64,000 nt of DNA from a virus (lineage: Duplodnaviria; Caudoviricetes): positions 32,001-96,000 of IMG/VR virus record IMGVR_UViG_3300037067_012088. The stretch is one strand, 5' to 3'. Within the stretch, counting starts at the first letter, position 1. Every line of letters begins with the position of its first letter. The position numbers and the translations under genes were made by a program. This document shows positions 1 through 53,050 of the stretch, piece by piece. The notes below the pieces were generated by a model. The model worked only from the letters and a program-made list of their open reading frames with translations, had not been told where the DNA came from and searched no databases.

Positions 1-28
1 CTTCTGCGTTCTTTACCATACCTTAACT

Positions 29-630
29 GCCCCAATATAGGGGCGACTACCATCCTTCCGCCATCCCAGAAATGGAGCGACGCCCATAGAAGAAAGGGGA
101 GCATCCCCCGAGTAGATGGAGATTGCCTCGACAGCACCTCTGCGAGTAGCGACACTGGACGGCCTAAATCTTGCCAGTTAGCCCAAATGAAGGTCCCAAA
201 TACATGGTGAAAGCCGAGATCGCCCGCAAGGGTGATGTAAGCCGCTTAGTATGGGCATGGATTATCTTGCGTAACGCATAACATGTGCCAGAAACGGCGA
301 GTGACGCGAGTGGAAAAATCATATCCTATCCAGACAACCTGACACGTTGTCTTGTCTTAACCGAGCGTATCTGACCGATGGTTCCCCGAAAGGGGGTCTA
401 AGTTGAGGGTAGGTTAATAGCCTATCGGAGTTTCAGTGCCCACACTCCAATCTTGGCAACGAGATACCCGACTTCTTTGTATCGCGAGTAGATCAATTCG
501 CGGCTACTACCTATCTAAGGCGAAGCTATGTCTAGACTGGTAGGTCCGCAATCGAGTAGATAAGGTCACTCCGTTCCCTGCGGTTCGCCCTTCAGGGGGC
601 TCACCGGTCGCTCTACGCTTCGCTTCGAGC
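29..630 (+). ncRNA. Candidate large structured ncRNA (GOLLD/ROOL-like class, family not established)
   Basis: No ORF >=60 aa. Dense hairpins with GNRA loops in + orientation: ATCGCCC-GCAA-GGGTGAT 219-236, TCCCC-GAAA-GGGGG 383-396, ATCTTG-GCAA-CGAGAT 450-465, GGT-GAAA-GCC 206-215. Long-range pair GCCCATA 82-88 with TATGGGC 250-256. CGAGTAG occurs four times. Boundaries approximate. Confidence 0.6.
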
Positions 631-884
631 AAGATGTTATTCAATTCATGGCAATCCTCCCAATCCCGTCTGCTCAACCTGCCTTAGCTACCTCAGTCAA
701 CCCGCACCCTTTTCTCACTCCCTCACCAGTTTCGTTCCCCCTCTCTCTCCCGAATCAGCCCGTCACCGGATCAAGTCCGATACCAAGATATCTTGATACC
801 AAGTAACTGTATATGGGGAATATTGAGGTATCTGGTTACCCGGCCGCCAAAAACCCGCTCCTGAGAAATAGTCTCAATATCCAG

Positions 885-913
885 TTGACAAGGTCGTCGA
901 ACTCCGTTATGAT
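885..913 (+). promoter_or_regulatory. Sigma70-type promoter TTGACA-N17-TATGAT
   Basis: Near-consensus hexamers upstream of the 958 operon. Confidence 0.8.
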
Positions 914-957
914 AGCTACGTTACCCTTCTTCAGACACGATACTCCCCTCTCAGCCA

Positions 958-1428
958 ATGACGATTCTCGGTATCAAAACCGCCCTGCTTAAGCACTTCT
1001 CCGCTAACGACATATTCGATCCCGTCAAGCACTCCTTGACCTTGGTTAACGACAAGGGAACGGAGGACCACGTAGACAAGATGCTGGGCGTAGCCTTGGA
1101 TCAGCTCGAAGAAATTGGACTGGTGAAGAAACTTGGCGGCGCAGCCGACAACCCTAGCGGAGCGACAGTATGGGTCCTTGTTCTCCCGCTCGAACTGGTC
1201 CCGCAACCGGTCTATCTTGAGCGCGATTTGGCCGGTGTCGTAGCTGACGTAATCAACCACTACAACGAGATGGAGGAAATCGAGGTGGAGTGTGACCCGG
1301 GCAAGATTGACGCCGCCGACATTGCGCGTCTGATTAACATCATCCAGAACTGGGAAGACGAGATGGAGGATGAGCCACCGGAGAAGGGTGGTGGAAGCCT
1401 CAAGGACTATAAGTCGGGGATTAACTGA
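958..1428 (+). CDS. Hypothetical protein
   Basis: 156-aa ORF heading a tightly packed operon. Confidence 0.75.
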   Translation: MTILGIKTALLKHFSANDIFDPVKHSLTLVNDKGTEDHVDKMLGVALDQLEEIGLVKKLGGAADNPSGATVWVLVLPLELVPQPVYLERDLAGVVADVINHYNEMEEIEVECDPGKIDAADIARLINIIQNWEDEMEDEPPEKGGGSLKDYKSGIN

Positions 1429-1429
1429 C

Positions 1430-1735
1430 ATGGACGAGACTGATTTCGACATCTTCCTGCGTATCCTCAACGAGGCTTATGCCGCCGACCCGGCCGCGAT
1501 TGATGCGCTCGTCTGTAACCGAGTTCCGTGCTCACGGTCTCTGGCTGATCATCCTACCATTCAGGTGGAGATGATGTCGCTTTTTGGAAGAGAAGACTAC
1601 TCGGTGGGCCTGCTAGGGGTCGTAAATGGACTATGTGAGGCTATCACAGGAAAGCGTGTCGCAGTCAAGTTCTCAGAACCCGATGCCGAGACTGGGCAAG
1701 GCAAGATTCTTGGATTCACGGAGTATCAGCCATGA
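1430..1735 (+). CDS. Hypothetical protein
   Basis: ATG 1 nt after the previous stop; ATGA overlap with the next gene. Confidence 0.7.
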   Translation: MDETDFDIFLRILNEAYAADPAAIDALVCNRVPCSRSLADHPTIQVEMMSLFGREDYSVGLLGVVNGLCEAITGKRVAVKFSEPDAETGQGKILGFTEYQP

Positions 1736-2274
1736 TCTCCGATTCCGAACTCATCTCACGCATCAAGGAGCAGGCCGACAACGCCGCCACCCTTGAACTC
1801 ATCAACCGCCATTCTGGTGTCTACATCGACGTGATCAACCAGTATGCCTTCTCGCCTAAGATCCAGATGCCCGAATTGAAGGACGACCGCATGTTCAACA
1901 TCTTCTCGTGGATCAAGACCTTTGATCCTACCAAGGAGACTCAGTTTGGCAGCTACGTGGGCAAGAAGACGCGCTGGATGTGTCTCAACATCATCAATCG
2001 AGACGCGGAGAGTGTTGAGATGGATGTTAACTCGCCCAACACGGATATGGACACACAGGGCGCGGCGGAGATGCATTCGGACGCGGCGGAGGTGAGTGCC
2101 GAAACGGCCAAGATCGATGACCCAGTTTTCTGGCGGATATTCAAGCTGCGGTTTGACGGGAAACGGCCAAAATCGTGGCGCTCGATTGGCGAGCAAATCA
2201 ACTTGTCTCATGAGGGCGCGCGAAAGCACTTCCTTAAGCACATCGGGGCGGTAAGGGAGCAACTCGCCGTATGA
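1732..2274 (+). CDS. Phage RNA polymerase sigma factor (sigma70 family, regions 2 and 4)
   Basis: Region 2-like 'IKTFDPTKETQFGSYV' and region 4 HTH 'IFKLRF..PKSWRSIGEQINLSHEGAR'. Confidence 0.8.
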   Translation: MISDSELISRIKEQADNAATLELINRHSGVYIDVINQYAFSPKIQMPELKDDRMFNIFSWIKTFDPTKETQFGSYVGKKTRWMCLNIINRDAESVEMDVNSPNTDMDTQGAAEMHSDAAEVSAETAKIDDPVFWRIFKLRFDGKRPKSWRSIGEQINLSHEGARKHFLKHIGAVREQLAV

Positions 2275-51965: not shown

Positions 51966-53050
51966 CTCTTGGGGGCCGTTAGCTCGGCTTCACCCTTGGG
52001 GTCAATGAGACCCAACGCCACCTCAGTCTTGACCTGCTGCTTCTGCCAAAACGAGCCGTCCTTGCCCATGCGGTATTCGAGGTGCTCGTCAAGAGTATCA
52101 ATAGCTTTCGTGTCCCCCTTGGCGGCGGCCTCGTCGCGCAGATCTTGGATGGCCTGAGTCTTCCTCTTGTCGAGTTCGTGCTTGATCCAAAGACGCCGAA
52201 TCGCGAAGTAGGCAGCGACCAACGCACTCAGTAGGATACCCCCCATCAGGTATGGGAACCACGGCTGATTTGTGAGCCAGTCGATGAAGATGGAGATAAG
52301 ACCTATGATAACACCACCTGCCGCGAGCCCTGCGCCCTCAACGACCAACTTGAACACCGCGAGAAGGACTACGCCCACCACGATGAGACCAAGACCCGCG
52401 ATCCGGGTCCAAAGCACCCATTGCGCGCGCTCCTTGCTCGCCGCCTCGTCTTTGATACGCTGTATCTCGGCATCCTTAGCCGCGAGAGCCTTCTTGATGT
52501 CGTCAGCGTGCTTGGCTTGCTCTGCTAGCTTCTCTCGGGCGAGACGGGCGATATCCGTTTCGCGTGCCTTGATAGTCTCATCGCGCTTGACTATCTCGGC
52601 ATCCTTGGCTGCAATCTCAGCGCGCGCGGTTTTGGTCGCGGCATCAGCCTCTGCATAGCGTCTCAACGCCTCGTCGCGTTGACCGGTTACGAGAAGGACC
52701 ACTCGCTCAAGGGCCTTGACCGTCTCTTCTGGATCGTCCTTGCCCAGTCGCTGTTTGCCCAGTTTGCTCTCCTCTGCGGCGGCCTCACGAGCGGGACTGA
52801 AGTCCATGTAGTCAAGGGCTTTGAGCACCCCAAGGAAGTTGGATGCCGCCTTGGCCGCGAGAGCCTGTTCCAGCAGACGCGCTTCCTGTTCAGCCTTGAC
52901 TTGGGCGGTGAGTCCCTTAATCTGCTCATCCTTGGCGACACCTAATGCGGTGGCGGCGGGACCTTCGGGGACGATAATGGTGTCAGTCTGACAACCGGTG
53001 AAGCCTACGATCAGGAGGGCGGCTATAAGGAGGGCTAATACACGCTTCAT
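51962..53050 (-). CDS. Lipoprotein with coiled coil and C-terminal TM helices (spanin-like lysis protein)
   Basis: Lipobox 'FTGC', long A/K/E coiled coil, three hydrophobic segments. Confidence 0.6.
   Translation of the reverse strand: MKRVLALLIAALLIVGFTGCQTDTIIVPEGPAATALGVAKDEQIKGLTAQVKAEQEARLLEQALAAKAASNFLGVLKALDYMDFSPAREAAAEESKLGKQRLGKDDPEETVKALERVVLLVTGQRDEALRRYAEADAATKTARAEIAAKDAEIVKRDETIKARETDIARLAREKLAEQAKHADDIKKALAAKDAEIQRIKDEAASKERAQWVLWTRIAGLGLIVVGVVLLAVFKLVVEGAGLAAGGVIIGLISIFIDWLTNQPWFPYLMGGILLSALVAAYFAIRRLWIKHELDKRKTQAIQDLRDEAAAKGDTKAIDTLDEHLEYRMGKDGSFWQKQQVKTEVALGLIDPKGEAELTAPKS

Follow-up and report, generated by a model that had tools for sequence, protein, structure and literature searches.

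The DNA analyzed in this study, referred to as the window, is a stretch of 64,000 nucleotides corresponding to bases 32001–96000 of the virus record IMGVR_UViG_3300037067_012088 (G000; 191,387 bp, estimated to be 92% complete), for which the sole full match among public sequencing runs is a groundwater metagenome, probably the source sample. Near its left edge lies a gene-free region in which a large structured RNA had been proposed at positions 29–630 from the letters of the window (the original prediction), and this candidate RNA locus is our subject. Because it sits at the left edge of the window, the upstream DNA was added as L001, in which the L001 position minus 1500 gives the window position. 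With this flank, the non-coding region extends over ~1.3 kb (window −350 to 957), bounded on the left by the start codon of a minus-strand gene for a C5 DNA methylase (L001 1150, window −350) and on the right by the ATG (958) of a plus-strand gene for a 156-aa protein (958–1428), the first gene of a rightward operon that also encodes a sigma-like 180-aa protein and sugar-modification genes. It is larger than 29–630, and the boundaries drawn originally did not hold at either end: the non-coding unit begins ~265 nt before the first base of the window, beyond the view of the original prediction, and the last 70 nt of 29–630 are part of a separate core element (561–670) that is conserved in most relatives.

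The absence of an open reading frame (ORF) from 29–630, as originally claimed, was borne out. The longest frames in the region are 50–70 aa, none of which is kept in relatives, and a 52-aa frame at 648–806 is not preserved as an ORF in the related loci L008 or L010. Recoding of the stop codons (TGA as W, TAG as Q, TAA as Q) opened no consistent frame either here or in 13 related loci, and tblastx between the alternative sequences that occupy this position in different phages (cassettes, described below) did not find a protein relic. An intron had been considered unlikely, and we agree, as Rfam gave no intron match and no host gene is interrupted, because the flanking genes are complete and divergent.

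Relatives were reached via two neighboring proteins, the 156-aa protein, which served as the anchor (nine homologues, 52–87% identity), and the sigma-like 180-aa protein (22 homologues). The resulting loci (L008–L014 and L063–L069) comprise 13 that were fetched, representing 9 distinct phages, and one known from its gene table only; all of the genomes are uncultivated metagenomic assemblies. Every one of these loci, including the gene-table locus, keeps a gene-free stretch before the same operon, on the same strand and directly upstream. The gap is 850–1300 nt long where a left-hand bounding gene is present (nine fetched loci and the gene-table locus), and the four remaining loci are cut off within the gap by the end of the contig and show 530–850 nt of gene-free sequence. 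The left-hand gene varies between loci (a methylase, a Pif1 helicase or an unknown gene), and the gap is kept across two clades that share only ~40% protein identity. Searches by other routes did not extend this set: the whole gap had no blastn match among 50,697 phage records, a search of the phage's own genome for paralogues of window 1–960 returned only the query itself, and relatives sought in IMG/VR via the 156-aa protein and a 406-aa protein were only distant phages without the RNA.

Among the relatives, the sole homologue of the body of the element (29–560) is L013. The two sequences are collinear via ~20 short identical islands with unalignable stretches between them, and because a global MAFFT alignment was too poor for RNAalifold, we compared independent folds anchored on the islands. 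Each sequence was folded on its own to obtain pair probabilities with a span limit of 200 nt, and the fold concordance S scores pairing in the window that has an L013 counterpart at island-mapped positions, within 3 nt; the null was L013 dinucleotide-shuffled between the islands. On the plus strand, S was 60.5 vs. 24.4 ± 8.1 for the null (92 shuffles, maximum 48.6), and it was 15.3 when the inter-island segments were reversed. For window 29–560 alone, S was 42.8 vs. 17.2 ± 6.7 (100 shuffles, maximum 35.7), and 34.5 vs. 14.2 ± 5.9 after removal of island–island pairs. The minus strand was weaker (42.8 vs. 24.9 ± 7.7, z about 2.3). In addition, a covariance model (R1) built from this window alone recovered the counterpart of its four-way junction in L013 (2422–2499) at full length, with 38 bits and an E-value of 6e-9. 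Five stems covary between the two sequences (154–178, 333–351, 481–503, 507–543 and a 5′ hairpin at −236/−164), and changes from U-G to C-G pairs fit the plus strand.

Folding energy gave a mixed picture. The minimum free energy (MFE) of 29–630 lies close to that of shuffled sequence (z −0.9 on the plus and −0.75 on the minus strand); folding no better than shuffled controls had been named in the original prediction as an outcome that would speak against it, and for 29–630 taken alone this is what was found. The whole proposed unit (−237 to 680) has a z of −3.5 on the plus strand and −0.1 on the minus strand, and L013 shows the same asymmetry, with −286.8 vs. −253.4 ± 8.9 on the plus strand (z about −3.7) and −275.5 vs. 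−271.4 ± 8.4 on the minus strand (z about −0.5).

All of the pairings listed originally exist at their coordinates when the base pairing is checked, and comparison with L013 separates those that are shared from those that are not. A four-way junction occupies 400–474, with hairpins at 408–426, 427–448 and 450–465, the last of these (450–455/460–465) capped by a GCAA loop. The three hairpins had been recognized previously and are conserved in L013, but the closing stem in both sequences is 400–405/469–474 rather than the proposed 407–411/465–469. In the L013 junction the third hairpin reads CUCG-GUAA-CGAG, so that GCAA is replaced by GUAA, and a U-G pair of the window is a C-G pair. The segment GGTAG (539–543) is complementary, as noted earlier, to CTACC at both 47 and 507, and L013 supports the partner at 507 over that at 47: a helix CUACC/GGUAG (507–543) surrounds the conserved island GGCGAAGCUAUGU, and in L013 an 11-bp helix, GGUUCAGAUUU/AAAUCUGAACC, surrounds the same island (GGCGGAGCUAUGU; island consensus GGCGRAGCUAUGU).

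Several other hairpins of the plus strand changed their sequence while a neighboring motif or the pairing itself was retained. The hairpin ACUGG...CCAGU (154–178) corresponds to UAGGG...CCCUA in L013, with three of the five pairs changed on both sides. At 333–351 (GACAAC-CUGACAC-GUUGUC), the loop CUGACAC is kept in L013 between wholly different arms (CCGG/CCGG). The hairpin CGCGA...UCGCG (481–503), which includes the third of four CGAGUAG copies, is represented in L013 by CCCUC-GGGU-GAGGG at the same distance after the conserved island GACUUCUUUG; its arms are fully different, and CGAGUAG is not conserved there. The hairpin GGGGA-GCA-UCCCC (95–115) is followed directly by the first CGAGUAG copy, and its L013 counterpart is GGAG, seven nucleotides and CUCC, followed by GAGUAG, so that the stem differs and the motif is conserved. 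For the hairpin CUCG-A-CAG/CUG-CGAG (126–149), whose 3′ strand runs into the second CGAGUAG copy, L013 has the same arms around a different loop (CACCU vs. GAGU), and the independent folds agree. Near the start of the body, GCCCC-AAUAUA-GGGGC (31–45) has a collinear counterpart, CCCC-GUCAU-GGGG, that likewise stands after the island CGTTCTTT. The conserved islands that we propose to be single-stranded are CUGACAC, CGAGUAG and CUCACAAAACACGAUA, the last of which is the loop of the covarying 5′ hairpin at −236/−164.

The hairpin 219–225/230–236 (GCAA loop) and the long-range pairing 82–88/250–256 are complementary as claimed, but both are unsupported in L013. The remaining helices of the original list, which pair as described, are a hairpin with a GAAA loop (383–387/392–396), a short hairpin (206–208/213–215) and a long-range helix (356–361/402–407).

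The four copies of CGAGTAG that had been counted are indeed present on the plus strand within 109–559, compared with 10 in the whole window on both strands, and this strong local enrichment can also be read at the level of DNA. On such a reading, the region would be a replication origin, a packaging site or a protein-binding control region at the point where the transcription arms diverge, with the CGAGTAGAT repeats and CAAT-N-CAATCC as binding sites and the inverted repeats incidental or cruciform-forming. Three copies of the 9-mer CGAGTAGAT are present, together with a fourth CGAGTAG and an inverted copy; two CAAT units stand ~11 nt apart in the core; the region lies between divergent gene blocks, next to DNA-metabolism genes in relatives (methylase, Pif1 helicase, ThyX); and the minus strand is also somewhat fold-concordant. 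However, only two of the four CGAGTAG copies are conserved in L013, the stems covary and the loops stay conserved, and a promoter reads into the region. The RNA would also be C-rich over the skewed tract described below, the opposite of what an R-loop primer prefers. The structure signals are asymmetric towards the plus strand, which is not expected from the symmetry of DNA, and no AT-rich unwinding region is present (GC 0.47–0.54); because of this strand asymmetry and the lack of an AT-rich segment, we regard a DNA-level element as quite improbable.

Beyond L013, conservation of the body does not reach far. Upstream of the core, this slot carries at least four cassettes without homology to one another (types A–D, each 300–600 nt), of which the body is one, an unexpected mosaic. 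Type A is found in this window and L013, type B in L009, L063, L065, L066 and L069, type C in L010, L011 and L014, and type D in L008 and L068. In L008, the closest relative (its 156-aa protein is 87% identical), alignment with the window begins only at 561. The cassette types do not track the relatedness of the phages: L009 and L011 share 88% protein identity and carry different types, L009 and L010 are 98.6% identical downstream and diverge abruptly inside the core, and the type B cassette of L063 shares 86–93% nucleotide identity with those of L066 and L069, whereas the sigma-like proteins share 39–40% amino-acid identity. Types A and D both occur in one sample, because a 182-nt contig in the aquifer run of L008 (type D) matches window 173–349 (type A) at 97% identity; fragments of the 5′ module of the unit are also present in this run. 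Neither a recombinase nor a homing endonuclease was found within the slot.

Two of the other cassettes, types D and B, show structural conservation of their own. In type D (L008 vs. L068, 75% identical), both sequences retain all 106 consensus pairs, 14 of which differ on both sides, compared with 0–3 in slid-partner controls. Type B (L063:3955–4267, L066:3949–4393, L069:3539–4038, L009:1960–2314 and L065:1–390) has 61 pairs, 7 of them compensatory; a long stem of variable length is inserted between its two conserved halves, and it has no Rfam match. Model R1 gave only weak, non-significant matches (E 0.6) in L010 and L011, both of type C, and so does not link the cassette types by homology. 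Types A and D, otherwise unalignable, both contain a GAGUAGCG motif (GCGAGUAGCGA in type A, window 143–151; CGGAGUAGCGAUAAGGG in type D, L008:253–262 and L068 gap 277–290).

The cassettes adjoin a common core (561–670, plus strand), which consists of an invariant hairpin, CGGUUCGCC..GGCUCACC (CGGTTCGCC..GGCTCACC in DNA letters), a variable hairpin that changes in sequence and keeps its pairing, and then AUG..UCAAU..CAAUCC. The core could be aligned in this window, L008, L010, L011, L013, L014 and L068. Of the type B loci, L009, L063 and L065 retain its 3′ half, L066 matches it only in part, and no match was recognized in L069. Pattern scans added no further loci: for the core, viral_contigs gave 46 matches, all attributed to chance by nhmmer, and a metagenome scan gave one match, a duplicate of L014; for type A, the pattern CCTCGACAG..CTGCGAGTAG had no match in viral_contigs and 10 chance matches in genome_contigs.

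These patterns bear on the simplest alternative, a functionless spacer with chance hairpins or the remains of a decayed gene. Such a spacer would account for the shuffled-like folding energy of 29–630 and for the absence of the body from the closest relative. It would not be expected to persist as a gap in all relatives of two clades at ~40% protein identity, or to be more conserved than the neighboring proteins, as the type B cassettes are; moreover, the fold concordance is significant, compensatory changes occur, and tblastx finds no relic of a conserved protein. We therefore consider a spacer very improbable.

A sigma-70-type promoter, TTGACA-17-TAAGAT, is located at L001 1228–1256, ~270 nt before the start of the window, and is directed into the gap; it is conserved in L009, L011, L013 and L063. 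The promoter family GTTGACR-N16-18-TAnRWT has 12 copies in the genome, compared with 0.4 expected from shuffles, and therefore the upstream promoter is more than an isolated consensus match. From sequence, these 12 are presumably the early promoters of the phage, and transcription from the upstream one would start at about window −237 (G000 about 31764). Family members are located at window 884, 8435 and 9518 on the plus strand and at 51966 and 61852 on the minus strand, with seven others in G000, and are often extended to GTTAnGATA. A second promoter of the family, TTGACA-17-TATGAT (885–913, plus strand; 11 of 12 consensus matches), serves the downstream operon and is kept at the same place in relatives, with a weaker match in L068. 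The octamer ACACGATA stands 20–35 nt downstream of both plus-strand promoters here (window −213 to −206 and 935–942) and relatives keep it at either place. Possible roles are those of an operator or an RNA motif of the 5′ end; as the octamer follows none of the other ten family promoters and is present only at the two promoters of this locus, the idea of a general early-transcript motif was dropped.

The first ~250 nt downstream of the start, the 5′ module, are the thermodynamically exceptional part of the unit (MFE z −4.5 on the plus strand vs. −1.8 on the minus strand). The part from −162 to −25 is common to L063, with ~97% identity from about −123 onward (~100 nt), and a stem that reads GAUGA/UCGUC here is GACGG/CCGUC in L063, a compensatory change. 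The module ends within the window (1–16, plus strand) with the 3′ arm of a 13-bp hairpin (−23 to 6) and the island CGTTCTTT (7–14), which is conserved in L013. This hairpin is followed by CGTTCTTTAC and resembles an intrinsic terminator; it has no counterpart in L013 or L063 and was dropped as a conserved feature.

At the other end, the core is followed by a C-rich, G-poor tract (600–815, plus strand; 62 C and 19 G per 150 nt) that precedes the separate promoter of the next operon. At 600–810 it falls in the top 0.04% of 150-nt windows for C-skew in the 191-kb genome and is one of just seven genome regions with an absolute skew of at least 0.5, and a comparable tract follows the core in most relatives. 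C-rich, G-poor composition is a hallmark of Rho utilization (rut) sites, and 600–810 forms a C-rich, G-poor, unstructured tract of at least 80 nt, as expected of a Rho-dependent terminator. With this ~200-nt, weakly structured tract, placed between a structured part and the next promoter, the locus resembles the Rho-dependent terminators and rut sites at the ends of bacterial and phage non-coding transcripts, a likeness that is compositional only. From its sequence, the transcript would most likely end by Rho-dependent termination in 600–815.

The arrangement of a structured RNA that abuts a C-rich tract upstream of an operon is also that of a cis-acting leader or attenuator, which is the main rival to an independent RNA gene. 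In this case, the folds and the core would decide between Rho termination in the C-rich tract and read-through into the rightward operon, by Rho-dependent attenuation or by processive antitermination, as in leaders that mask or expose rut sites or in the put RNA of HK022. In all relatives the element immediately precedes the operon in the same orientation, the octamer follows both promoters of the locus, and the boxA-like island CGUUCUUU is followed ~15 nt later by a short GC hairpin (window 7–45), an arrangement conserved in L013 that resembles lambda nut boxA/boxB and HK022 put. Unlike in those systems, however, the island is not enriched in the genome (20 occurrences of GTTCTTT vs. 16.9 expected, so that a genome-wide antitermination signal was dropped), and the hairpin loop is not conserved. 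An antitermination-like part would make up at most a small fraction of a 0.9-kb RNA, and no N-like or Q-like protein was identified. No known riboswitch or leader family matches. The operon has its own conserved, near-consensus promoter between the C-rich tract and the first gene, so the leader is not needed for its expression, and wholesale replacement by non-homologous cassettes with the operon unchanged is not expected of a regulatory leader. A leader thus appears unlikely to us, though less so than a DNA-level element or a spacer.

Few large structured RNAs are known from phages, and what they do is unsolved; two of them, GOLLD and ROOL, often sit beside tRNA genes in phages or prophages, and Rfam 15 contains the GOLLD family. 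At the gathering score, Rfam 15 gave no family in the 64-kb window; at E up to 10, window 1–1000 gave just two noise matches (a snoRNA and an L31 leader), and at E up to 1 the 11 related loci gave nothing. ARAGORN found neither a tRNA nor a tmRNA on L001 (1.5 kb on either side). It had been suggested that the element belongs to a known class such as GOLLD or ROOL or else to a new one; because nothing in Rfam 15 matches, the second part fits better, and membership in GOLLD or ROOL is ruled out as far as covariance models test it, in the window and in its relatives. Group I and II introns, RNase P RNA, tmRNA and OLE were likewise rejected, with no Rfam match and, for the introns, no interrupted gene. 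GOLLD and ROOL form homo-oligomeric cages, and homo-oligomeric quaternary assembly is common to GOLLD, ROOL and OLE (PMC12286853). The element described here is like GOLLD and ROOL in its general features (hundreds of nucleotides, non-coding, multi-domain, many hairpins, GNRA loops, phage-borne) but has no covariance-model match and no adjacent tRNA genes, and it differs in its fixed syntenic slot, its own sigma-70-type promoter and its C-rich tail. In addition, type A was seen in two phages only, in contrast to the breadth of the GOLLD and ROOL families. That it is a member of one of these known large ornate classes is barely credible on this evidence.

Overall, we consider it fairly probable that this region forms the body of a gene for a long non-coding RNA of ~0.9 kb on the plus strand, transcribed from an early phage promoter. 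Comparative structure supports the RNA nature and the strand, and the transcript and its ends we infer from sequence signals. The transcript would be started by the host-type (sigma-70-like) promoter and comprise, in order, the stable 5′ module of ~250 nt, the multi-hairpin type A body (~29–560) and the core (561–670), before ending in the C-rich tract ahead of the operon promoter.

Several observations weigh against this reading. With one homologue of the body, the support is significant but thin: the expected covariation was found, with compensatory stems above controls, but it is only pairwise, and the concordance statistic is home-made rather than that of R-scape. With a span limit of 200 nt, 29–630 still folds no better than shuffles (MFE z −0.8). 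The contig from the L008 run with 97% identity alters the GCAA loop and one pair of hairpin 219–236, changes that may be errors because its depth is only 3. The hairpin and T-rich run at −23 to 6 could end many transcripts before the body in this phage. The Rho terminator was called solely on composition, and the sequence was not found in any RNA run among the public runs.

A trans-acting role is our tentative guess at function, because the operon has its own promoter, whole bodies are swapped between constant flanks, and conservation is higher in the cassettes than in the neighboring proteins. The RNA might act in trans early in infection as a scaffold or decoy that would bind a protein of the host or the phage through its conserved loops and islands, and the exchange of whole cassettes between phages might reflect host selection via defense or takeover; we would put this below even chances. 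The slot resembles phage accessory or anti-defense islands, in which non-homologous inserts alternate among close relatives at a fixed site with conserved flanks (here the promoter side and the core) and are also common to distant phages. It differs in that the cassettes are predicted non-coding structured RNAs instead of genes and in the lack of a recombinase or homing endonuclease in the slot. A more specific proposal, which is possible and somewhat more doubtful still, is that the slot is an exchangeable RNA-cassette locus, in which at least four non-homologous structured RNAs, between a conserved early promoter and the core plus terminator, are swapped horizontally between groundwater phages with ~40% protein identity. 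It would then be an RNA counterpart of anti-defense or host-takeover islands, and each cassette would titrate or mimic its own host factor.

The locus is real and is probably a new structured-RNA locus; it adds a candidate RNA family that current RNA libraries do not recognize. Its setting is informative, with a defined promoter, a likely terminator and a fixed slot in which unrelated structured RNAs alternate among related phages. If the cassettes are real transcripts, the exchange pattern suggests host selection through defense or takeover, and the locus offers a natural experiment, with one phage backbone and different RNAs.

The flanking genes have features of their own. In L069, genes for an HNH endonuclease (L069:1803–2435) and a LAGLIDADG endonuclease (L069:7455–8441) lie in the blocks that flank the slot, and because these have inserted there, homing elements are active in the neighborhood. 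The C5 cytosine DNA methylase gene on the left (L001:190–1150, minus strand; window −1310 to −350) is split into two overlapping ORFs of 185 aa (Pfam profile positions 2–119) and 150 aa (positions 269–322), which may reflect a frameshift, an assembly error or a genuinely split enzyme. On the right, the 156-aa protein had no match in Pfam and PHROG searches, and the 5′ untranslated region of its gene (window 914–957) is C-rich, with no recognizable Shine-Dalgarno sequence before the ATG at 958. Nearly all relatives keep the length of the 180-aa protein (window 1732–2274), whose gene lies two genes beyond the RNA. A sigma-factor PHROG matches this protein weakly (E 4e-4), and the source of one homologue calls that homologue sigma70/sigma32; the 180-aa protein is a possible sigma-like factor of the phage. 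Other ORF-free gaps of 1–2 kb are located outside the window, at G000 104091–106092, 175360–176955, 170283–171368 and 168788–169775, and in the first of these C-skew reaches its maximum for the genome (69 C and 7 G per 150 nt at ~105648).

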